DNA from: an uncultured bacterium
GTDB taxonomy: Bacteria; Zixibacteria; MSB-5A5; UBA10806
Reading direction: 5' to 3'
Length of the DNA stretch: 32,582 nt
Assembly: GCA_965541585.1 (NCBI GenBank)
Contig: CBEUCH010000025.1
Coordinates: 1-32,582, forward strand
Below are positions 1 to 29,107 of this stretch, one piece after another. A program made the position numbers and the translations under genes. The number at the start of each line of letters is the position of its first letter. The stretch's first letter is position 1. A model generated the notes under the pieces. The model saw only the letters and a program-made list of their open reading frames with translations. It was not told the DNA's origin and did no database searches.

Positions 1-972
1 CGGTACTGGTGGTTGGCCCGGAATCCAATCCGGACGGGATTGTTTTTGTGCTTGCTGCGGAGGAACCTCATTTCGGCACCATATCCGGGACTATTTTTGG
101 TGAGACCCCGGACGGTGAGCAACGTCTTCATTTTGCCCATGTGATAGCCTACAGAGTCGGTATGGAGGAGCCGGTTGCCGATGCCGGCACCGACGAGTTG
201 GGCAACTATGTACTGGAGCTCCCTCACGGCGAGTACCATGTCCGGGCCGGAGCCGAAGGGTATATACCGGAGTGGTACGACAACGTTTCGCATCGAGAGG
301 GGGCCACGGTACTGGTGGTTGGCCCGGAATCCAATCCGGACGGGATTGTTTTTGTGCTTGCCCCGGAGGAACCCCATTTCGGCACCATATCGGGTACTGT
401 TTTTGGCGAATCCCCGGACGGTGAGCAACGTCTTCACCATGCCTATGTCATCGCCTACAGTGTCGGTATGGAGGAACCGGTTGCCGATGCCGGTACCGAC
501 GAGCTGGGCAACTATGTACTGGAGGTTCCACACGGCGAGTACCATGTCAGGGCCGGAGCCGAAGGGTATATACCGGAGTGGTACGACAACGTTTCGCATC
601 GAGAGGGGGCCACGGTACTGGTGGTTGGCCCGGAATCCAATCCGGACGGGATTGTTTTTGTGCTTGCTGCGGAGGAACCTCATTTCGGCACCATATCCGG
701 GACTATTTTTGGTGAGACCCCGGACGGTGAGCAACGTCTTCATTTTGCCCATGTGATAGCCTACAGAGTCGGTATGGAGGAGCCGGTTGCCGATGCCGGC
801 ACCGACGAGTTGGGCAACTATGTACTGGAGCTCCCTCACGGCGAGTACCATGTCCGGGCCGGAGCCGAAGGATATTTACCGGAATGGTATAACAACGCCC
901 AGCATCGTGAGGAGGCCACAACACTTGTAGTCAACCAGGAATCCAATCCGGACGGGATTGTTTTTGTGCTTG
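1..972 (+). repeat. Intragenic tandem repeat, 306-bp unit, about 3.2 visible copies
   Basis: cggtactggtggttggcccggaatccaatcc recurs at 1, 307 and 613; a diverged partial copy runs to about 972. Confidence 0.95.
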
Positions 973-1256
973 ATCCTCTGAGGAACACGATCGGCCAGAA
1001 CTACCCCAATCCGTTCAATGCCCATACGATTGTGTCATTCAACCTCGCCGATCCCGCGGAGGTTGAATTGACGATTTTCAATATCTTCGGGCAGATGGTC
1101 ACAACACTGGCTGACGGTTTTTGTCAAGCGGGCAGCCACGAGATTATCTGGGATGGGCGAAATACTAACGGAAATCCTGTATCATCTGGAGTCTACTACT
1201 ATCGCTTGAAGATTGGTGAGAACTCCGAAACCAGGAGAATGACTTTATTAAAATAA
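1..1256 (+). CDS. 5'-truncated secreted protein with tandem ~102-aa carboxypeptidase-regulatory-like (beta-sandwich) repeats and a C-terminal FlgD-Ig/T9SS type A sorting-like domain
   Basis: Frame is open from the window edge. Repeats GTISGT..GTDELGNY.L..PHGEYHVRAGAEGYIPEWYDN. C-terminus QNYPNPFNA..IFNIFGQMV..WDGRNTNGNPVSSGVYYYRL..RRMTLLK is the typical FlgD/Por-secretion tail. Confidence 0.85.
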   Translation, partial: VLVVGPESNPDGIVFVLAAEEPHFGTISGTIFGETPDGEQRLHFAHVIAYRVGMEEPVADAGTDELGNYVLELPHGEYHVRAGAEGYIPEWYDNVSHREGATVLVVGPESNPDGIVFVLAPEEPHFGTISGTVFGESPDGEQRLHHAYVIAYSVGMEEPVADAGTDELGNYVLEVPHGEYHVRAGAEGYIPEWYDNVSHREGATVLVVGPESNPDGIVFVLAAEEPHFGTISGTIFGETPDGEQRLHFAHVIAYRVGMEEPVADAGTDELGNYVLELPHGEYHVRAGAEGYLPEWYNNAQHREEATTLVVNQESNPDGIVFVLDPLRNTIGQNYPNPFNAHTIVSFNLADPAEVELTIFNIFGQMVTTLADGFCQAGSHEIIWDGRNTNGNPVSSGVYYYRLKIGENSETRRMTLLK

Positions 1257-1581: not shown

Positions 1582-3675
1582 TCATTTAACATCTGAATAC
1601 TTAACGGCATCTTCATTATCACCGACGTTGTGATGCGTAGCATTTATGGTACGAATCAGACCTTTCAATTCAGAAAGTTCTGATTTCAGAGCGTCTATTT
1701 CGGTATCCTGTTTCTGAGTAATTCTATAGAGGGATTTGATGGCCGCTAAGGCTACTCCGTCAGCGTCAATCGCTGTGATAAATCTATTATCCTCACCCAC
1801 GCCGAAAGCCGCATAGAAATCCTGCGCCATCGGACCGATATGTTCTATATCAGGATCCTGTGTCTTATAGCTCCATCGGCTGATGCTCAAACGATCTAGT
1901 TTTTCAAGAATTTTCTTTCCGTCAACAGGGCGGATGTTACGCTTAACGTTTATGTCGGAAACGCTCGCCCATGACCCGCCTCCGGCGGCTAATGTAACTC
2001 CTGTACTCAGGTTGCTACTTGAGTAAATCCTTGCTCCGCCAGCAGACCGTACGCTGAATTGATTATTGGCTGATGAATTGAAGTTCGATGTATTGCTGTT
2101 ATCCGATAATACTATTGACCCTACATGCTGCGCGTTTGCCCTAAAACCGGCCGCAAGCGAAAAATCGCCGGTTGCCTGATTGAACTGGCCTCCGGGGATC
2201 GTCGCGAAAGCACCACTGGCAACGTTGCTATGCCCTCCTCCAATTGTCGCATAATATCCTGACGCGTTATTTTGGTAACCGCCGGCGATTGTTGCAGCGA
2301 TTTGACTCGCGTCATTACTATATCCACCTCCTATTGTCGCTACCTGCCCGGACGCTTCGTTAAGTTGTCCTCCGCTTACTGTAGATGCCTCTCCTGTAGC
2401 GATGGTTCGATTCCCCCCGCCTACGGAGGAATAATTCCCGTTCGCCGCATTAGAATCAGCCGTAAGGGAGCCGCCGCCCCCTGCTACCACGGAATACAGT
2501 CCGCGAGCGCGATTATTCTTGCCACCGGCTATAGCGGAGTATTGCCCTTCGGCGATATTTATTTCGCCTCCGCCAACGGAGGCCTTGTCTCCCGTCGCAA
2601 AATTTGTTAGCCCACCTCCGATCGCTGAAAACGGCGCTGTAGCATTATTGGAATTGCCACCGCTTATCACAGCGTTAGCTCCACTGGCAGTATTGGACGT
2701 ACCGCCGCCGACGGCAGCGAAATTTGCGTTGGCAGAGTTTCCCTGACCTGCGACAAATGCCGCGGTTCCGGAGTTGCTGTTTGCGGAGCCGATTCTCGCC
2801 TTCCCGCCAACCACTATATCTCCGTTTACGTCCAATTTTTCCGATGGGGATGTTGTCCCGATGCCCACGTTCCCTGAAACTCCCGAGTACATGTCAATCC
2901 CAGAAATAATCCAATCGGAATCACCGCCTGATCCGGTTTCATCATTACTCACAGTCCATCCAATGCCATCCCACTTCATTACCTGTCCTTCTGAGGCGCC
3001 GTTCTGGTTTACATCCTCAAATAGAATCGTACCGTTCTGTATTTCAGAGCTGGTTATTGTCGGAGGATTATTCTCATCTGTAATCGGAACCCACTGTCCG
3101 GCATGGGCGTAATATGCTCTGCCCTCGCCGTGAACGTGAGCGAACATACCGTGATAAGTAGATGCAGAAGGTAGATCGCCGAGAGTAGAATAAAAGAATC
3201 TTACTTTACTCTCCACCCCTGTTACGTCGATGGCACCATCAACCGCGAGATCGCCTCCAATCGTGCCTCCTGAAGCCCCGTCAACAGTCGATATACGCTG
3301 GGCGAAAGCAGCAGAGGCTATTCTGGCGCGCGGCGTTAGCTCTGCATCCTCTTCCACCTGCACGCCCAGCCATAAGTTTGGATTTTCAAAAACTATGTCG
3401 TCCAAAGGATTTGGAATATCGTCACCGAGCAAAATAGTGAATAACCCCTCTTGATCGGGCGTTACCGGATATGTATCCTCCCAGATAAGCGTCCCCCCCG
3501 ACTCAGCATCCCAGATCCTAAATGTTACGTCCACGGCAGATATAACCGGATTACCGTCGGAATCAGTCAGCTTACCCTGAAAGCTGATTATCCCGGGGGC
3601 GCCGGCAACAACAACAGAAATCATTGTAGCCACAGCGACTATAATAGTGCCTGTCTTATATGCTATCCTTCTCAA
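1582..3675 (-). CDS. Secreted tail-fibre-like protein with YadA-head-like 14-aa repeats and a C-terminal peptidase S74 intramolecular chaperone
   Basis: Signal peptide, then ISFQGKLTDSDGNP N-domain; GNVGIGTTSPSEKLDVNG motif; many A.G..A.I.GG..N repeats; WASVSDINVKRNI..W.YK..HIGPMAQDF S74 signature followed by a coiled coil. Confidence 0.85.
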   Translation of the reverse strand: MRRIAYKTGTIIVAVATMISVVVAGAPGIISFQGKLTDSDGNPVISAVDVTFRIWDAESGGTLIWEDTYPVTPDQEGLFTILLGDDIPNPLDDIVFENPNLWLGVQVEEDAELTPRARIASAAFAQRISTVDGASGGTIGGDLAVDGAIDVTGVESKVRFFYSTLGDLPSASTYHGMFAHVHGEGRAYYAHAGQWVPITDENNPPTITSSEIQNGTILFEDVNQNGASEGQVMKWDGIGWTVSNDETGSGGDSDWIISGIDMYSGVSGNVGIGTTSPSEKLDVNGDIVVGGKARIGSANSNSGTAAFVAGQGNSANANFAAVGGGTSNTASGANAVISGGNSNNATAPFSAIGGGLTNFATGDKASVGGGEINIAEGQYSAIAGGKNNRARGLYSVVAGGGGSLTADSNAANGNYSSVGGGNRTIATGEASTVSGGQLNEASGQVATIGGGYSNDASQIAATIAGGYQNNASGYYATIGGGHSNVASGAFATIPGGQFNQATGDFSLAAGFRANAQHVGSIVLSDNSNTSNFNSSANNQFSVRSAGGARIYSSSNLSTGVTLAAGGGSWASVSDINVKRNIRPVDGKKILEKLDRLSISRWSYKTQDPDIEHIGPMAQDFYAAFGVGEDNRFITAIDADGVALAAIKSLYRITQKQDTEIDALKSELSELKGLIRTINATHHNVGDNEDAVKYSDVK

Positions 3676-6697: not shown

Positions 6698-9238
6698 CTA
6701 TCGAGCCCTTGCCTCTGTCCAAACGGCTTTCTTTGTATTGTCTTCCGAGGATGCCAGGGAGCGAACAAGATCCCTAAGTTCCCGGATTTCAGCTCTGAGT
6801 TGATTATTCTCCTCGATTTTTTGTTCCAGGCGATCGATTTTTTCCTGCTGCTTTTTTATAGCCTCAACTAACAGAGGAGTTATTTTCGCGTAGTCGACAG
6901 AGTAATAACCATCTTTCCCCTTTGAAACGACTTCGGGTAAGACCTCTCTTATATCCTGTGCGACGAACCCAACCTGCCTTTTCTCAGCAAACTGTCGATC
7001 AGGGAATTCATCAACCCGCCAGTCGAATTGCACGCCGTTAAGCTTTCTAATCTTCTCAACGGGGTCGGGTATCGGTGTGACGTTCTTTTTGAATCGCCTA
7101 TCCGAGCATGATAAATATCCTGCAGCGCATACATCGCCATCGACGTATAGTCTATACCCGGGGCTTAAAGCACCAACACCAAGCATCGCCCCCGGATCAA
7201 GGGCTAAGGCCCCGCCGCCACGGGATGAGAGTTCTCCCAGAGGCGATACGCTGAAGGTTGTTCCAGTGGGATCGGAAAATTGTAGACCATTGTAATTATA
7301 ATCGAATTCATAAGGCGCACTGTATACTCGGTAACCCTCGGAGGTCGATTCTGTGGAATCGCCTGGCTGCGCCGCATTTGATCTGGTCGTTCTTATAAGC
7401 CGATCGATGCTGTCGTAGGCGTAGGTGCATGTCCAATCATCGTCGAAAATAGCGTCATCCGGTCTGAATGCTAACCGCGGCTCGGCCGATCGCAGGCTCA
7501 AAGCTACTATTTCCGTTTGAATCTGGCCTAAGGGTTCGGTCCATAAGGCGATTCTACCGCCACCACCACCACCCGAGCTAATACTCACACCGTCTAAACC
7601 ACTGGAACCTATATTCGAAACGGTCAGGGTGGATGAACTCGAACCGACATCTATCGATACACCATCCTCACCACTGGAACCGATATTGGAAACCTTTAAT
7701 AGCGCACCGCTTTCGGAAACGCTTCTTGAGATCCTGTAATCGACATCGAAGAACGAATCGACTACGAAATCGCCGTTACTGCCGTAGCGAGCCGTGGTAA
7801 AGGGTATTCCGTCGCTTCCGGTTCGAGTGAAAAGGACCTCAGTGGCATCGGCATCCATCCTGTAAGTGATATCGAAAAATGAATCAACCACAAAAGTTCC
7901 GCCGCCAGAAGCGTCAGCTTTTAGCCCGCTGGAAAAAGAATCGGTCCCATCGTCGAATGAACATATGGCCTCCGCTAATGAAACGGTAGCTTTGTCACGC
8001 TTTCTTACTGTTGTAGCGGCGTCTGAAACCTCCAGGGAGGAAAGAGCGCCCTGGTCGGACACGCTTCTTGATATCCTGTAATCTACATCGAAGAACGAAT
8101 CAACGACGAAATCACCGCTCTTTCCGTAACTTGCTGTCGTATCCGGTTGACCGTCGGAACCTTCACGGGAAAAGGTCATCTCGCTCGTATTCTGATCGCA
8201 CCTGTAGGTAATATCGAAAAATGAATCGACCACAAAAGTTCCGCCGCCGTTGTTGTCCGCGCGTAAACCAACAGAGGAACTGTCAGGATCGTCGGGGCCC
8301 GCGGCTCCGATATTTCGGATTATGGCCAGAGCGGTATCATGGGCTTTGAGATCCAAAGTTGATCCGTTGCTGTCGACATCTATGCTGACTCCGTCCTCCC
8401 CGCTGGAACCGATGTTCGATACGGTCAAATGTCCGCCGGAAGCATCGGCCGATGAGTTCACCGCGGAAAGCGCTCCAATATCCTCATGCTCGATACCGCA
8501 TGTGGCGGCGCCATCATCGACACCAATAGAAACACCATCCTCCCCGCTTGAACCTATGTTGGAAACAATCAGGTTCGATGAATTCGAACCGACATCTATT
8601 GATACACCATCCTCTCCGCTGGAGCCTAAGTTGGAAACACGCAGGTTAGCCCCTGTTTCGGTAGCGTCCAAATCAACCCTGTAAGAGATATCGAAAAACG
8701 AATCGACCATATACAGACTCGAACTGCTACCGTTGGCGTTTAATACAATACCGGGATTATCCGGGCTGGTACTTCTGAGCGAAAGCTCCACAATTTCGGT
8801 TTCTATTTTAAGCTGGCCCGGCTCCGTTTTGATGTTGTCACCGTCGACTCTCTCGGCGATCCTCGAATACGGGACGCTATTGAGCTGAAAACGGGGCGTC
8901 ATGGGAGAATCACCGGCAACCTGTGTTTGAAGATAGACGGTCAGGTTATCGCTTGATAATTCGTCAATGGGTATAGGGGTAACACTGCCCAGGGCGACGT
9001 TGAACATTCCGTCCGTGACCTGAACATCCTGAGTCTCAGACCATAACTCCGTTCCCACGTCAGGATCATCCCAGAGGCTGAACGTGATAGAATAGCTGTC
9101 ATCCGGCGGCATTCCGCCGTCAATCATCATCAGGCGCCCCTGGTGGCCTATGAATAATGGTACGTCGGCTGTAGCCAGCGGGGTCAGAGCGGCCACCGCG
9201 AAAAGTACGGTAACCAGTGATAACATTCTGGCGTTCAT
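6698..9238 (-). CDS. Secreted mosaic-repeat protein with a C-terminal peptidase S74 chaperone
   Basis: Signal peptide, IGHQGRL N-domain; 5x VDSFFD[IV]xYR and 5x VSN[IL]GSSG[EL]DGVSI motifs; SCSDRRFKKNV..GFVAQDI..PEVV..VDYAKITPLLVEAIK S74 domain; AGGAG RBS. Confidence 0.85.
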   Translation of the reverse strand: MNARMLSLVTVLFAVAALTPLATADVPLFIGHQGRLMMIDGGMPPDDSYSITFSLWDDPDVGTELWSETQDVQVTDGMFNVALGSVTPIPIDELSSDNLTVYLQTQVAGDSPMTPRFQLNSVPYSRIAERVDGDNIKTEPGQLKIETEIVELSLRSTSPDNPGIVLNANGSSSSLYMVDSFFDISYRVDLDATETGANLRVSNLGSSGEDGVSIDVGSNSSNLIVSNIGSSGEDGVSIGVDDGAATCGIEHEDIGALSAVNSSADASGGHLTVSNIGSSGEDGVSIDVDSNGSTLDLKAHDTALAIIRNIGAAGPDDPDSSSVGLRADNNGGGTFVVDSFFDITYRCDQNTSEMTFSREGSDGQPDTTASYGKSGDFVVDSFFDVDYRISRSVSDQGALSSLEVSDAATTVRKRDKATVSLAEAICSFDDGTDSFSSGLKADASGGGTFVVDSFFDITYRMDADATEVLFTRTGSDGIPFTTARYGSNGDFVVDSFFDVDYRISRSVSESGALLKVSNIGSSGEDGVSIDVGSSSSTLTVSNIGSSGLDGVSISSGGGGGGRIALWTEPLGQIQTEIVALSLRSAEPRLAFRPDDAIFDDDWTCTYAYDSIDRLIRTTRSNAAQPGDSTESTSEGYRVYSAPYEFDYNYNGLQFSDPTGTTFSVSPLGELSSRGGGALALDPGAMLGVGALSPGYRLYVDGDVCAAGYLSCSDRRFKKNVTPIPDPVEKIRKLNGVQFDWRVDEFPDRQFAEKRQVGFVAQDIREVLPEVVSKGKDGYYSVDYAKITPLLVEAIKKQQEKIDRLEQKIEENNQLRAEIRELRDLVRSLASSEDNTKKAVWTEARAR

Positions 9239-9440: not shown

Positions 9441-9764
9441 GTTAAAACTGGTAATAATAGTCATTAGTGACCACCTTTAGACGGCAGATGATCATCGTCG
9501 CCACGAAGACGTGATCATAAGCCATCTATAAGAATATGAAATCTTAACCAAGCCGGCTGAGGCGATCCGGGCCGGCATCCCTTTATCAGACTGGTTCTTT
9601 GGTTAATGTGTTTCCGGAAAGAGAATGGAGCCTGGCTGTGTCGGAAGCCATCCATCCACAAAGAAACTTGACTTTCTCTCTGGCTGGGCTAACTTATACT
9701 ATGGCAAAACTATTAAGGGCTGTTCAAACCCGGATTTCATTTTTTAGATAAAGGGGAGTGTTAA

Positions 9765-10202
9765 GTGAAAGTAATAGACATACTCAGGGAAAAGAAATCT
9801 GGAGTAAAAACTATTTCTCCTGATAAGTCCTTAAAGCAAGCATTGAGATCCATGATGCAAGACAAGGTGGGATCTTTGATAGTCACGGAGCGCGAAAACA
9901 TCCCGTTAGGTATAATAACCGAACGAGATATTCTCCGATATATAGATCGTGTGGATAATTGGGAGAAGACCGTTATAAGCGACGTCATGACAAAGAAACT
10001 CATAATCGGTTTACCCGATGACGATGTCGAGGTCATAATGGAGTTTATGACAAAGAATTACTTCCGTCACGTTCCAATCCTCGATGAAAAAAAATTAGTG
10101 GGTATAATCTCCATCGGCGATATTATCAAGGCACAGCTGCAGGATATCAAAACCGACAACCGATTTCTCAGTGACTATATTTCAGGGAAATATCCAGCGT
10201 GA
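9765..10202 (+). CDS. CBS domain pair protein
   Basis: VGSLIV..GIITERDIL..VISDVMTK..FRHVPIL..LVGIISIGDIIK; RBS AGGGGAG before GTG. Confidence 0.92.
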   Translation: MKVIDILREKKSGVKTISPDKSLKQALRSMMQDKVGSLIVTERENIPLGIITERDILRYIDRVDNWEKTVISDVMTKKLIIGLPDDDVEVIMEFMTKNYFRHVPILDEKKLVGIISIGDIIKAQLQDIKTDNRFLSDYISGKYPA

Positions 10203-23907: not shown

Positions 23908-26544
23908 TCAGGAACCGTTCGGCAAGGCATACCTCTTTACTAACGCCTGGTAGCGCGGATCATCGCGGAAGGGATCGATCCAGTGTTTGAATTTCAACGT
24001 GTTCACAGTTATATAGGTCTCCAGGGAGAGTACAAGTTCAAGTTCGTCAATCGCTTCGTCGTATCTTCCGCAATTAGCATAAATCCTGGCCATGACCATG
24101 GCCGTGCCCTCGACAGAATGTCAGGGGGTACACTCGGAAATTTCCACCAGTTCTTTTTCTCTTAAACCGCATTCAATCGCATTCTCGCAATCTCCAACAA
24201 ACGAAAGCAGTAAGCCTCGCCATCCGAAAAAGTCAACTTCATCCGAATACAGCTCCGATTGTTTTTTTGCTAAATCGTCATAACCTTCGAGAATATCCAG
24301 GTGACTGAGATAAGTGGAGGGTAGGCCATGAAATAAATTAGATTTGGTCGTATCTGCGCTTTGCTTATGTAAGAAGTCAGCTATGATCGAATCAGTTTGT
24401 ATGTCATGCATATATTTCGATAGCGAGTAATTCCTGATAACGAATTTCGTCGTATCACAGTGCTTGAGCGCCTCGCTTATTACCGGCCTGACTTTCTCTA
24501 TATTTCCATATCTGGCGATCAGACAATCGATCTTATCTTCGTAATAATCTTGGGCTTCCGGGTTCAAGGCGATGGCGCGATTAATAGAATGTTCTGCCTC
24601 CTCAAACCTGCGAAGAGATTGCAGTAGGTAAGCGAGTCTGGCATGTCTTCTGGCGTTTAAAGGGTCGATTTGAGCTGCCTTTCTTCTGTTCAGAAGGGCT
24701 TCTTCGAGTTTCTCTTGATCTATCTGTACTTCTGATATCGCGTCGAGTAGTTCAGGGTCATTGGAAAGTCCGGCTTTTGCCGTTGAATAGTGTTCGAGGG
24801 CCATATCATCATCGGCTTCAACAAGATAGTAGTACTGTCCCAGCGCCAGATGTCCTTCCGGAAGTTCCGGTTCAAGCTCCAGAGCTCGCTTCGCCGCTTC
24901 CAGCGCGGTTTTGCCTCTTTCCGATTCAGGAGAAAGACCGGCCCCACTGGTGTAAGCCTCCGACCTAAGCGCATGAGCCAGCGCGAAAGAAGGGTCAAGA
25001 GCAACGGCGCTGTCCAGTGCGGCTTGAGCGCTCCGAGAATCCGAATAATCAATCCATCGCCTAATTTTTTGAAGCGCTTTAAGATAAAACTGGTATGCCT
25101 CAGGATTTTCGGTTGGTATTTTGGCCAGGTTTTGCCGGTCCGATTCAAGCAGGGTCAAACCGAGTTGTTCAACGATCTTTCCGGCGATATCGGCCTGAAC
25201 GGCGAATACCTCCATCAAAGCCCGTTCGTAGTTATCGGCCCATAAATGACGATCATCAGCGACTCGAATCAACTGGGGTGTGATGCGTACCTTTGATTGA
25301 TCGCCGGTTTTACTCCAGCGGACAGTGCCTTCAAGGATGTACGCTACTCCAAGTTCCGCGCCGATTTCCTTAAGATTTTTATCGGTTGTTTCGTATTTCA
25401 TGGAACTGGTTCGTGATATTACGCCCAATCCTTTAATCCCGGCCAGGCGTGATGTTATCTCGTCGGTCATACCATCGGCAAAGTAGTCATCCTCCGGTGA
25501 GCCGAGATTATCAAACGGCAGTACGGCAATCATGGGGACAGTATCCCCTGACTGCGATCTGTCACTCAAAGGTCTGTATACCGTGTATAAGATAGCCGCA
25601 ACCACGACCACCGCAACAGCGGCTATCCCAACGATGAGCTTTGTCTTCTTCGGTTTAGTAGTCGCTATCCTCGAGTAGCCAGATTGCGATGAGTCATACA
25701 TCAGACGTTTCAGGTCGGCTATTACCCCTTCGGCTGATTGAAATCTTAGTTCTTTATCCTTCTCTAATAACTCAAAAACTATCTCCTGCAGCTTCTCCGG
25801 AACGTCCGATCTATACCGGGCCAGCGGCTCGGGAGTGTCCTCCATGATGGCCTTGAGGGTGGCTCCCTCGTTATCCCGTTTAAACGGTGTCCGCCCGGTT
25901 ATCAGCTCATAGAGAACAACACCGAGTGAGAACAGATCGGAGCGATGATCGATGTCTCTACCCGAAACCTGTTCCGGCGACATATAGGAGATTGTGCCGA
26001 GCGTCGATCCCGTCCTTGTAAGCTTATCATCTCCCTTAGCCACGGCCAGCCCGAAATCGAGCAGACGTACACGCTCCTGTTTATCGACTACGATATTGGC
26101 CGCCTTTATATCACGATGGACAATGCCCGCTCGATGCGCTTCTCCCAGGCCCTGGCAGATTTGAATAGCGTATTCAACTATCAGGTCGAACGGGAGCGGT
26201 TTATCATGGCGAATATCATGTAGAGACTTACCCTCCACAAGTTCCATAACATAGTAGGGTCGCCCATTGAATTCACTGACATCGTGGATGCTAATAATAT
26301 TGGGGTGATTGAGCCTAGCTATGGTTCGGGCTTCGCGCAGGAAGCGGGTTTGAATCTCCTGATCGGGCGTCAGGTGCGAGGGAAGAAATTTTATAGCTAC
26401 CTTGCGCTTGAGCTTGGTGTCCTCCGCCAGATACACTTCCCCCATCCCCCCAGCACCGATCTTCTCGATGATCTTATAATGAGAAATCATCGTCCCTTTG
26501 GATATAGGTACGAATGAGCGGGTGTTGTTGTCGTTATGCTTCAT
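23908..26544 (-). CDS. Ser/Thr protein kinase + TolB-N-like + TPR protein with an in-frame UGA (24121-24123), probably selenocysteine in a CxxU motif
   Basis: Kinase motifs GAGGMGEVY, VAIK, HRDIKAAN, DFGLA, YMSPEQ; IAVLPFDNL; TPRs. ORFs 24121..26553 and 23908..24099 share a frame, separated only by TGA; readthrough gives ..ISECTP(U)HSVEGTAMVMARIYA..DPFRDDPRYQALV. Confidence refers to the readthrough model; the kinase call itself is very secure. Confidence 0.75.
24083..24120 (-). promoter_or_regulatory. Putative bacterial SECIS element
   Basis: Right after the UGA: CAUUCUGUCGAGGGCAC-GGCCAU-GGUC-AUGGCC-AGGAU. 6-bp stem with a GGUC loop starting 23 nt after the UGA. Confidence 0.65.
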
Positions 26545-29107
26545 TATTATCACCGAATTTGTTCATTATCGCTTGATAACGCGGGTGATCGCGAAGGGAA
26601 TCCCACCTCGGGTCAATTCGCAACAGATGAATAGAAAACCAGGATGGAATTTCTAAAAGACACTCGATACATTCGAGGGCTTTATCATATTCCCCTATTA
26701 AAGTATATGAAAACGCCTGATCTTCAACGCGGAAAGGACCTATAACGGCGTTTTTCGATACGGGGATAATTTCAACGGCCTTTTTGCTGCTGGTGATAGC
26801 CTTATCCTTTTGCCCGAGTCCGGCATAGGCTATTCCCAGCGAGCTATAAACTCGATCATCATCCGGTCGCTTTTCCATCTCTATTTGCAAAAGTCCGAGA
26901 GCTGATTCGTATAATTCGCGAGAACGATTCGCATCGTTCATAAGCCGGTAAGTATGTGCCGCCAATTGATCTTTGGTGATATAGTACCACTGGCCCTCAT
27001 CGAAAACCGCATCGCCCTCATCTAATACTCTAAGTGCTTCATTATAATTTCTCGAAAAGAGCTCAAGTCGATATAATTCGAAAAGAATAGCGGCCGGTCG
27101 TTTTAATTTGCGGTCTATTCGTCTTGGCATAGCCTCCAATGTAGCTCGACCGCCTTGAATATCGCCGTTATGCAGCCAGTAATTCCAAGCCTTGCAGATG
27201 TAAACTAATGTTTGGTCGGGAGCTATCGATATGGAACGATCATAATAGTTATCCGCTTCCCTGTATTTTCTCATTATCATATAGGCGCATCCGATCTCGT
27301 GAGCCACTGAAGCGTCCCGCGGACTCAATTCAAACGCCTTCTTATAATTATCAACAGTTTCGTCGATCCTGCCCTGCCGCTTGATAATAGCGGCGACGAC
27401 GGCCAATATCCTGGTGTCGTTTGGCAAATCTCGTTCAGCAATAGCGAATTCTTTAAGCGCTTTTTCATAATCCTGATGGCACCAATGATGATAATAGCCT
27501 AAAGCCAGATGAACGTCAGGCAACGCGGGTTGCAGTTTATATGCTTGCTCGATCGCTTTCTTTGCTCTTAAGATGCGGTCATCCGTTCGATCATATCCGT
27601 GAAAAAATAAAGCCGAGTGAACCCTCGAAAGATCCGCGAAGGCCAACGCGAAATCGCCGTCAAGTTCAACCGCCCGTTCAAACATTTGAACAGCCAACCG
27701 GAAATCATCTTCGGCGTAATCCGGCCGCCCCGCGTACTCCAAACCACGGAGATAAGCTTGATAAGCGTCGAGATTAGACGTTGGCTTAGCTTCTACAATT
27801 CGACGTTCAGGTTCCAATAAAGCTATATTCAATTGTTCTATAACCCGCTCGGCAATTTCCGATTGAACATCGAAGATATCGTCCAATACACGATCATAAC
27901 GTTCGGACCAGAGATGTGTATCGTCAGAGACTCGGATGAGCTGAGGAGTGATACGTACGCGGCTATCACCAGGGCTCTTGCGATTCCAGCGTACGGTACC
28001 TTCAAGAACATAATCAACCCCCAGATCAGAGGCTATTTCTCTAATGCTCATCCTTTTTTTCTTATATTTCATCGCGCTTGTGCGGGATATGACGCCTAAT
28101 TTGCGGACCGCCGCTAATCGGCTGGTAATCTCCTCGGTCATACCATCCGCAAAATACTCTTCGTCGGGAGGCCCCAGGTTGTCAAAAGGCAAAACGACAA
28201 GCATTTTAAGCTCTTTAGAGAATTGGGAAGAGACTTTAGATTTTGATTGATGGTGTTTTAAATCCGCCAAGAGATCGACTGCGCTTTGATATCTTGAATT
28301 AATATCTTTTCTAAGCGCCTTTTGAATAATTCGATCAAGCTCCGCCGACACGTTAGCCTTAAACCTCGCCAGAGGTTCAGGATCCGAATTGAGGAGCGCA
28401 TGATTGACAGCAGCCTCGCTATCACCCCTGAATGGGGGGCGTCCTGCTACCATCTCGTATAAAATTACACCAAATGAAAAAAGGTCCGACCGTTGATCGA
28501 TATCCATTCCCTCGATTTGATCCGGTGACATATAGCCAATGGTTCCAAGAGTCGAACCGGCCATAGTAAGTTTCTCAGACCCTTGAATAGCCGCCAGACC
28601 AAAATCAAGTAGTCTAGGGCGACCATCGGCGTCTATTACTATATTTGACGGCTTAATGTCCCGATGTATGATCCCAGCCTGGTGCGCTTTGCCTAGTCCC
28701 TCACATATCCCGATGGCAATTTCGACAATCTTCGATATTGATAGCTCATCGTCTTTAATCACTTCTTTCAATGCCCTACCTTCAACATGCTCCATGGCAA
28801 AGTACGGGCGGCCGTTATAATCGCCGACCTCATAGATGGTCACGATATTGGGATGATTCAACCTGGCTACCGCTTGCGCCTCTCGCTTGAAACGCTTACG
28901 ACAATCCTCCTCTTGGCAAAGATGAGGTGGGAGGAATTTGAGGGCTACTTTGCGGTTGAGTTCGGTATCCTCGGCCAGATACACCTCCCCCATGCCACCG
29001 GCACCGATCTTCTCGATGATCTTATAATGAGAAATCATCGTCCCTTTGGATATAGGTACGTAAGATCGAGTGTTGTCCATCCCATTTTCACGGGGCTCAG
29101 ATACCAC
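26534..29107 (-). CDS. Ser/Thr protein kinase + TolB-N-like + TPR protein
   Basis: GAGGMGEVY, VALK, HRDIKPSN, DFGLA, YMSPDQ; LVVLPFDNL..ADGMTEEITSRL; TPRs; C-terminal DPRWDSLRDHPRYQ. Confidence 0.95.
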   Translation of the reverse strand: MVSEPRENGMDNTRSYVPISKGTMISHYKIIEKIGAGGMGEVYLAEDTELNRKVALKFLPPHLCQEEDCRKRFKREAQAVARLNHPNIVTIYEVGDYNGRPYFAMEHVEGRALKEVIKDDELSISKIVEIAIGICEGLGKAHQAGIIHRDIKPSNIVIDADGRPRLLDFGLAAIQGSEKLTMAGSTLGTIGYMSPDQIEGMDIDQRSDLFSFGVILYEMVAGRPPFRGDSEAAVNHALLNSDPEPLARFKANVSAELDRIIQKALRKDINSRYQSAVDLLADLKHHQSKSKVSSQFSKELKMLVVLPFDNLGPPDEEYFADGMTEEITSRLAAVRKLGVISRTSAMKYKKKRMSIREIASDLGVDYVLEGTVRWNRKSPGDSRVRITPQLIRVSDDTHLWSERYDRVLDDIFDVQSEIAERVIEQLNIALLEPERRIVEAKPTSNLDAYQAYLRGLEYAGRPDYAEDDFRLAVQMFERAVELDGDFALAFADLSRVHSALFFHGYDRTDDRILRAKKAIEQAYKLQPALPDVHLALGYYHHWCHQDYEKALKEFAIAERDLPNDTRILAVVAAIIKRQGRIDETVDNYKKAFELSPRDASVAHEIGCAYMIMRKYREADNYYDRSISIAPDQTLVYICKAWNYWLHNGDIQGGRATLEAMPRRIDRKLKRPAAILFELYRLELFSRNYNEALRVLDEGDAVFDEGQWYYITKDQLAAHTYRLMNDANRSRELYESALGLLQIEMEKRPDDDRVYSSLGIAYAGLGQKDKAITSSKKAVEIIPVSKNAVIGPFRVEDQAFSYTLIGEYDKALECIECLLEIPSWFSIHLLRIDPRWDSLRDHPRYQAIMNKFGDNNEA

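Follow-up and report, generated by a model that had tools for sequence, protein, structure and literature searches.

Known bacterial selenoproteins are overwhelmingly redox enzymes, and the selenocysteine insertion sequence (SECIS) of Escherichia coli fdhF possesses an apical loop that contains GGUC. Selenocysteine is absent from PknG of Mycobacterium tuberculosis, a soluble protein in which a Hanks kinase is combined with tetratricopeptide repeats (TPRs) and with a Cys-based CxxC rubredoxin redox element that is thought to tune activity; the four metal-ligating Cys residues of PknG are located N-terminal to the kinase. The subject of this analysis is a Ser/Thr kinase gene with an in-frame TGA on contig CBEUCH010000025.1 of an uncultured bacterium of the phylum Zixibacteria (GenBank assembly GCA_965541585.1), a stretch of 32,582 nucleotides (nt) that is referred to as the window. 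The gene is most likely a divergent representative of a family of receptor kinases that contain selenocysteine (Sec, U), a family that is conserved and routinely truncated. It is absent from the 2026 catalogue, whose Table 1 enumerates 119 families and subfamilies of prokaryotic selenoproteins and includes neither a Hanks kinase nor a TPR receptor (PMC13188914). No selenoprotein Ser/Thr kinase was found in full-text searches of the literature, in agreement with a preliminary description of the window that knew of none, and a listing in other recent catalogues is possible. No selenoprotein model in NCBIfam release 20 matches either of the two Sec-type kinases of the host genome.

The features of the gene and of its upstream neighbor are as follows.
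26544..23908, minus strand: read-through kinase gene, 878 residues with U at position 808 and a terminal TGA at 23910..23908
25732..26478, minus strand: Hanks-type Ser/Thr kinase domain, residues 23-271 (Pfam PF00069)
25576..25638, minus strand: single predicted transmembrane (TM) helix, residues 303-323, LIVGIAAVAVVVVAAILYTVY (Kyte-Doolittle)
25135..25533, minus strand: juxtamembrane module LPFDNLG...YFADGMTDEITSRL..., conserved with paralogs
23911..25107, minus strand: sensor region formed by a TPR superhelix, 70-codon tail included (Pfam TPR families)
24121..24132, minus strand: C-T-P-U motif, with Cys805 at 24132..24130 and the candidate Sec codon TGA at 24123..24121
24103..24088, minus strand: hairpin GGCCAU-GGUC-AUGGCC, 17 nt from UGA to stem and 23 nt from UGA to loop
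23911..24120, minus strand: tail of 70 codons made only on decoding of the TGA, closing in the TPR end-cap …DPFRDDPRYQALVKRY…
26534..29107, minus strand: adjacent upstream paralog, a non-Sec kinase-TPR gene that lacks a TM helix; its 3′ end and the start of the Sec gene share 11 nt

The open reading frame (ORF) starts at ATG 26544 on the minus strand and meets the in-frame TGA at codon 808 within the text GAG TGT ACC CCC TGA CAT TCT GTC GAG GGC ACG GCC ATG GTC ATG GCC. Exactly 70 in-frame sense codons follow before the terminal TGA. The preliminary description had quoted this stop context and the 70-codon extension, and had located a C-T-P-U motif and a hairpin at 24088-24103 with its loop 23 nt beyond the UGA; the letters, frame and both elements are as it gave them. 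Its alignment of the extension with the C-terminus of the adjacent paralog also holds, as the read-through product aligns with that protein at full length, tail included, with 40% identity from end to end as far as …DPRYQA…. At the site aligned with Sec the paralog reads V-S-K-N-A-V-I-G-P, with neither TGA nor Cys, and the TM segment falls in a gap of the alignment. The tail scored 27.9 bits with NCBIfam NF047558 (TPR_END_plus), which is below the cut-off of 32, and the second Sec-type kinase of the genome, on contig C9, scored 40.7 bits. It is highly probable that the TGA at 24123..24121 is a Sec codon and that hairpin-directed Sec insertion yields a single 878-residue receptor. This interpretation, which is that of the preliminary description, is supported by the Sec machinery of the organism, by the conservation of the TGA and of the Cys residue, by covariation in the hairpin and by selection on the tail, and Sec decoding is well supported, about as far as sequence permits.

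The proposed architecture of a Hanks kinase, one TM helix and a TPR sensor was borne out by Pfam, Kyte-Doolittle analysis and AlphaFold2 modelling. The PF00069 match scored 180.3 bits against a gathering cut-off of 31.7, PF07714 also was among the Pfam matches, and the catalytic motifs GAGGMGEV (Gly-rich loop), VAIK, HRDIK, DFG and SPE are readable in the translation. The top 19-residue Kyte-Doolittle window in the TM helix attained 2.81. In Pfam, the juxtamembrane module elicited only a sub-threshold match to LpoB (E 0.17) and no recognized family. For the C-terminal 311 residues, AlphaFold2 modelling with 46 aligned sequences gave an all-helical TPR solenoid with a predicted local distance difference test score (pLDDT) of 87.1 and a predicted template modelling score (pTM) of 0.86. 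C238-T-P-U241 in the model, equivalent to residues 805-808, is part of the loop that joins helices 219-235 and 244-257, and Sec is positioned three residues ahead of the third-last TPR-type helix. Foldseek comparison with the PDB retrieved generic TPR superhelices only (consensus TPR, OGT and PEX5). As the kinase is cytoplasmic at the N-terminus and is followed by one TM helix, topology rules indicate that the Sec loop should face outward. A strong TM segment was evident in all six Sec-type genes that are readable at full length (values of 1.94-2.81), two in the host genome and four in genome G140. The non-Sec paralogs of the host genome have the same layout of kinase, juxtamembrane module and TPRs as the Sec-type kinases (comparison on contigs C25 and C28); the TM segment is absent from three of the four and weak in the fourth (1.57). 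As the helix is strong in both Sec-type kinases of the host and absent from three of the four non-Sec paralogs, Sec may accompany an outward-facing sensor.

The host genome (G000) comprises 3.52 Mb in 40 contigs with an estimated completeness of 98%, and the window is its contig C25. The preliminary description had pointed to selA, selB, selC and selD as genes to be looked for: all four are present on contig C11, each above curated cut-offs. The tRNA-Sec scored 75.6 bits against a cut-off of 47 and was assigned the anticodon tca by ARAGORN. Other genes of the host with a candidate Sec codon are as follows.
G000:C11:72796-73734: selD with its own in-frame TGA, …ACAGUASKL…
G000:C16:77651-78010, minus strand: Prx-like thiol:disulfide oxidoreductase, FFASW-U-PVCGPE (U-x-x-C; locus L140)
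G000:C9:95927-98620 (locus L039, 1428-4121): second Sec-type kinase, common form, …DDCHW-U-GPGSVMVMAY…
The selD hairpin has the loop GUC (…CCAGGUCCUGG…), with a GGUC-containing apex 33 nt past the UGA, and in the kinase on contig C9 the hairpin lies 11 nt past the UGA, the tail comprises 67 codons and a TM helix is present. The complete selABCD set, together with the TGA in selD and the Prx-like U-x-x-C gene, indicates that the organism uses Sec. No Sec-type formate dehydrogenase that might serve for SECIS comparison was found in the host genome. As SelA is present in 271 of the 285 genomes of the phylum, including 194 of the 198 of high quality, co-occurrence of the TGA kinases with SelA is uninformative.

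Homologs were sought initially with the last 178 residues in 40 relatives. An in-frame TGA was found in the corresponding alignment column in genomes from two other families, as well as in the second kinase of the host, in genes that read C-H-W-TGA-G-P-x-x-V-M-V-M-A and in which GGTCATGGTCATGGCC begins 11 nt past the TGA. A protein-based search that was blind to both hairpin and stop produced matches in 126 of the 285 genomes. Among the best 30 loci from that search, 24 displayed C-(H/F)-(W/L)-TGA-(G/S)-P and six were uninterrupted, reading D-A-(L/F/I)-(D/Y)-G-P at the same columns; in all six non-Sec homologs examined, the Sec position is thus occupied by Asp or Tyr and the Cys position by Asp. 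The G-P of these uninterrupted proteins aligns with the G-P that directly follows U in the common form. Overall, 48 distinct Sec-type genes were compiled from searches that did not select on the identity of the stop, and they are spread over eight of the 20 families that were sampled from the phylum. At the internal stop all 48 have TGA and none has TAA or TAG, a point that the preliminary description had proposed should be checked, and Cys is present at position -3 in every case. Of the 47 genes with a complete tail, 45 have an open frame of 63-74 codons beyond the TGA, and one further gene runs off its contig. Two homologs appear damaged, one with TAG 35 codons on (L022, G036:C41) and the other with a frameshift-like tail (L042, G047:C4); these may be decaying copies or assembly errors. 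Public gene calls stop at the TGA: a word search of 5.8 billion proteins identified seven relatives, all of which are truncated there and labelled as plain Ser/Thr kinases, as had been predicted of standard gene callers. A single match to W-U-G-P plus hairpin in the whole DNA collection (L110) was rejected as a chance occurrence outside any kinase.

The C-terminal 111 residues of the window gene also were searched phylum-wide at E <= 1e-18, and TGA was present in 16 of the 17 non-self matches. The best match is the ortholog in G140, which belongs to another family and shares 79% identity; it reads C-S-P-U-H-S-V-E-G-T and has the same hairpin at the same 17-nt spacing, with synonymous differences close around the TGA. 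Comparison of the 70 tail codons with those of this ortholog gave pN of 0.12 and pS of 0.70, a dN/dS of ~0.07 at saturated synonymous sites. The difference between pN and pS shows that the tail is translated in this frame under purifying selection.

The hairpin GGCCAU-GGUC-AUGGCC folds as a 6-bp stem with an energy of -7.9 kcal/mol. The bacterial SECIS (bSECIS) consensus, as set out in PMC13188914, comprises a stem of 4-16 bp, a UGA-to-loop distance of 16-37 nt and an energy of <= -7.5 kcal/mol, and also expects a G-G opening of the apical loop. Scored with our own implementation of this consensus, the element in the window agrees on all four features, with its GGUC loop, 6-bp stem, 23-nt distance and folding energy. 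The 16-nt motif GG[TC]CATGGTCATGGCC occurs twice in the 3.52-Mb genome, each time just 3′ of an in-frame TGA in such a kinase. Across the phylum the motif produced 53 matches in 45 of the 285 genomes compared to three for a reversed control pattern, and the 30 loci taken from this search comprised 23 kinase genes of this type and seven chance matches. Of the 48 Sec-type homologs, 47 carry this 6-bp hairpin, with GGUC as the loop or, in three of them, GGGC. The remaining homolog encodes V-Q-V-L-A, has no AUG, and has a different hairpin, GGUCCAG-GUU-CUGGCC with a bulged U.

In the alignment of the 48 sequences, this 6-bp stem was the sole consensus structure reported by RNAalifold, with 99.3% of alignment cells paired compared to 2-64% when the 3′ partners were slid. 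Pair 1-16 is GC in 42 sequences, AU in three, UA in two and GU in one, with no mismatches, and pair 3-14 is UG in 41, CG in five and UA in two. The covariation score of 0.116 exceeded that of shuffles (0.066) and was not reached in any of 500 shuffles. The hairpin sequence also encodes A/V-M-V-M-A, and the changes in pair 1-16 are synonymous, as they affect the third positions of the codons on either side. The hairpin variants all stem from the protein-based search. The element is therefore conserved with compensatory stem changes, which had been singled out in the preliminary description as a matter for scrutiny, and this conservation lifts it beyond chance. As a separate observation, the Gly codon after the UGA in the common form is nearly always GGA and UGA-GGACC is nearly invariant (alignment A1, columns 16-20); the GACC is complementary to GGUC both in the loop and in the 5′ arm, and an alternative pairing or pseudoknot may be possible.

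The most serious rival explanation is that the TGA is a true stop, such that the kinase ends at Pro807 and the last 63-70 codons form a separate TPR-cap peptide translated by reinitiation at the AUGs of the motif. Two in-frame AUGs do lie within the conserved A-M-V-M-A, a Shine-Dalgarno-like GAGG is located 8 nt before the first of these in the window gene, in the common form UGAGGA precedes the first AUG by 13 nt, and the seven database relatives are annotated to end at the TGA. The explanation fails on five counts. First, a plain stop should drift as terminal stops do: in 45 of the same genes the terminal stops are 22 TGA, 13 TAG and 10 TAA, and long ORFs of the host genome end in 511 TGA, 489 TAA and 438 TAG, yet the internal codon is invariant. 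Second, the codons between the UGA and the AUGs are kept as protein, H-S-V-E-G-T-A being identical in the G140 ortholog despite synonymous changes. Third, the G-P of the common form aligns with uninterrupted homologs. Fourth, the AUG-less homolog with V-Q-V-L-A retains a hairpin and, fifth, start codons leave the compensatory changes in the stem unexplained. The distance from GAGG to AUG also is unequal in the two forms. Reinitiation is considered very unlikely as a result.

A second rival accepts that the tail is translated and dispenses with Sec: leaky termination, or decoding by a near-cognate tRNA (such as that for Trp or Cys), might be stimulated by the hairpin to produce a mixture of truncated and full-length protein. 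The substitution pattern of the tail bears on in-frame translation and not on the residue that is inserted, and the lack of Cys homologs, which is unusual for a selenoprotein, is all that speaks for this rival. Nevertheless, the genome encodes a complete SelB system, the hairpin fits the SelB-type consensus with a G-G loop opening at the right distance, and the invariant Cys at position -3 generates a classic CxxU motif. Moreover, no reassignment of TGA is seen, as SelA, SelB and other genes are free of in-frame stops. There is accordingly only a slight chance that read-through proceeds without Sec.

Contigs from two other metagenome studies that are ~90% identical to the window cover 24016-24399, and none of the differences listed for them falls at 24088-24123; these contigs are derived from four runs, are all short, and none covers the whole stretch. 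No RNA run was listed for the stretch itself, and each of the 11 runs listed contains only 4-6% of sampled words. Together with the TGA in the ortholog from another family, the contigs make assembly error, a concern that had been raised at the outset, unlikely. Thus, although two of the 48 homologs are damaged and an ortholog in genome G007 has lost the loop, a strain-specific nonsense mutation or artefact is scarcely credible in view of TGA in all 48 genes across eight families, the constraint on the tail at synonymous saturation, and the agreement of the two studies' contigs.

Several observations nonetheless weigh against Sec decoding of the window gene, or against the strength of the evidence for it. 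The 67-nt stretch that includes the hairpin has a z of only -1.0 compared to shuffles, and among the 511 long ORFs of the host genome that end in an ordinary TGA, 16 also have a qualifying hairpin at the stop, so that the hairpin by itself is weak evidence. The common-form hairpin alone has an energy of -5.2 kcal/mol and misses the -7.5 limit, while agreeing with the other three features of the consensus. Conservation of the hairpin sequence is overstated, as the exact hairpin pattern had initially served to retrieve ~30 of the hairpins in the 48-sequence alignment. The spacing in the window gene is 17 nt compared to the 11-nt norm, in a form that is common to only one other genome, G140. The second-best match of the phylum-wide search, which is the closest ortholog from the same family (L020 in G007; 70% identity over the 111 C-terminal residues), lacks the loop through a clean 14-residue deletion. 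The Sec loop is poorly defined in the AlphaFold2 model, with pLDDT <50 at residues 238-240. Finally, no homolog with Cys in place of Sec was found in the host phylum or among close database relatives.

Selenoprotein families are usually marked by the existence of Cys homologs (PMC12013277). Here the expected Cys-containing proteins did not materialize; the non-Sec relatives have Asp or Tyr and Asp instead. The pattern TGYCAYTGGTGHGGNCC yielded 42 TGA and one TGT, of which the TGT and one TGA are chance matches outside kinase genes, and the Cys-form pattern with TGH had no true match in the phylum. As no Cys form emerged in this sample, sulfur apparently does not substitute for selenium at this site. 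The deep-Sep filter demands Cys-containing homologs, according to the same paper (PMC12013277). Since standard selenoprotein finders impose this demand, a Sec kinase family of this type would be missed by design.

The window gene differs from the common form in its motif, C-T-P-U-H-S-V-E-G-T-A-M-V-M-A, in two extra codons between U and the hairpin, and in pair 3-14 of the stem, which is C-G compared to U.G. It lacks the common-form signature of C-(H/F)-(W/L)-U-(G/S)-P with 11-nt spacing. The interpretation of the preliminary description as a selenoprotein gene is supported, with the correction that the gene does not have the typical form: C-x-P-U-H-S with 17-nt spacing is derived. In a quick maximum likelihood tree, the window gene and the G140 and G007 orthologs form a group (support 100) that is nested in the Sec-type clade (support 98), and all 15 non-Sec sequences lie beyond a single branch (support 99). 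The window gene thus appears to be a divergent, derived offshoot of the C-H-W-U-G-P kinase-TPR family. The G007 deletion (L020, G007:C123, about 9505-9987) takes out the Cys, the Sec and the hairpin and keeps the rest of the protein, from which it follows that the Sec loop is dispensable in at least one lineage. The simplest history entails one origin of the Sec loop from a D-x-x-D-type ancestor, followed by remodelling in the lineage of the window gene and deletion in G007.

Genome G140 carries at least five Sec-type kinases, four of which are arranged as two tandem pairs. In one pair, a C-H-W-U-G-P gene is located directly upstream of the C-S-P-U-H-S ortholog. The loci are as follows.
G140:C27:2000-9000: L078
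G140:C27:209000-216000: L079
G140:C26: L119

In the proposed mechanism, the hairpin situated 17 nt downstream of the UGA, with its GGUC apical loop, would recruit SelB and Sec-tRNA(Sec) when the UGA is reached; Sec would be inserted at residue 808 and translation would continue for 70 codons. The product would possess a Hanks kinase in the cytoplasm, a single TM helix, and an outward juxtamembrane module and TPR superhelix, with the Cys805-x-x-Sec808 pair located in a surface loop. We infer from the sequence a role for this pair as a redox or metal switch: in the extracytoplasmic compartment it might react with redox species or with metals and metalloids, cycling between selenenylsulfide and selenol/thiol or acting by chalcogen ligation, and so alter sensor conformation or partner binding and hence kinase output. 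Synthesis of the full-length receptor would be tied to selenium supply.

It is possible, if on balance doubtful, that these kinases are selenium-dependent receptors in which the Cys-x-x-Sec loop itself is the sensing element, relayed across the membrane to the Hanks kinase, and in which the completeness of the protein reports selenium. The reactants then may be an extracytoplasmic oxidant, reductant, polysulfide or soft metal or metalloid. If this sensing role were correct, the lack of a Cys form would be explained by the inability of sulfur to copy the chemistry, and receptor completeness would report selenium supply, since production of the final TPR cap depends on decoding of the UGA. As an observation in its own right, the window gene and the G140 ortholog read C-x-x-U-H (24118-24132, minus strand), which is the CxxCH pattern of c-type haem attachment with Sec as the second Cys; the common form C-H-W-U-G-P has no His after U. 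On account of this resemblance, C-x-x-U-H may be a covalent or axial site for haem or metal.

Elsewhere in the window, three large minus-strand proteins carry, close to their C-termini, a domain of the Peptidase_S74 type ('chaperone of endosialidase'), a layout that resembles self-cleaving tail-spike or fibre-like proteins. The features are as follows.
9-1256, plus strand: protein with CarboxypepD_reg repeats, closing in a C-terminal sorting domain for type IX secretion (Por_Secre_tail/CHU_C)
1582-3675, minus strand: Peptidase_S74 protein, 697 amino acids (aa)
6698-9238, minus strand: Peptidase_S74 protein, 846 aa
30827-32512, minus strand: Peptidase_S74 protein, 561 aa
15552-19844, plus strand: respiratory cluster in which a cytochrome b split into N- and C-terminal parts precedes a multi-haem cytochrome c of 855 aa
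The multi-haem cytochrome c also bears FixO-like and cbb3-type domains. The Por_Secre_tail/CHU_C domain on the CarboxypepD_reg protein hints at an FCB-group-like envelope.

If the Sec interpretation is correct, the placement of Sec in the sensor of a TM Ser/Thr kinase carries selenium biology into bacterial signal transduction, and a single residue provides a concrete handle on what these opaque TPR sensor kinases detect. The family also exposes an annotation blind spot, in that public gene calls cut such proteins at the UGA. The variant in the window indicates that the distance between UGA and hairpin can shift by two codons with the element retained, and the sister lineage in G007 that the whole Sec loop can disappear.

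Like SelB/SECIS genes, the window gene combines an in-frame UGA with a stem-loop within the ORF that opens in G-G, at a spacing within 16-37 nt and an energy of <= -7.5 kcal/mol. Unlike typical genes of that system, the host protein is a signalling receptor kinase and not an oxidoreductase, no Cys homologs were found, and the hairpin comprises 6 bp. The protein resembles PknG in that a Hanks kinase is joined to TPRs and to a putative redox Cys element. Selenoprotein O-like protein, which we take to have a protein-kinase-like fold, is presumably the sole kinase-fold entry of the 2026 catalogue. It appears there in Table 1 as PF02696 (PMC13188914). Unlike that protein, the window kinase does not have PF02696 among its Pfam matches and its Sec is in the TPR sensor, far from the catalytic domain. 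Another family in the same table resembles the window gene in having CxxU in an envelope or receptor-type protein and not in a thioredoxin-fold enzyme (PMC13188914); it differs in that its fold is unrelated, it has Cys homologs (PMC12013277, Table 3), and it has no kinase output domain. With the C-H-W-U-G-P kinases, the window gene shares the order of kinase, TM helix, juxtamembrane module and TPRs, the site of the TGA, a Cys three residues before it, the core of the hairpin and a tail of 63-74 codons, and it is set apart from them by C-T-P-U-H-S-V-E-G-T, the two-codon insertion and the C-G pair at 3-14.

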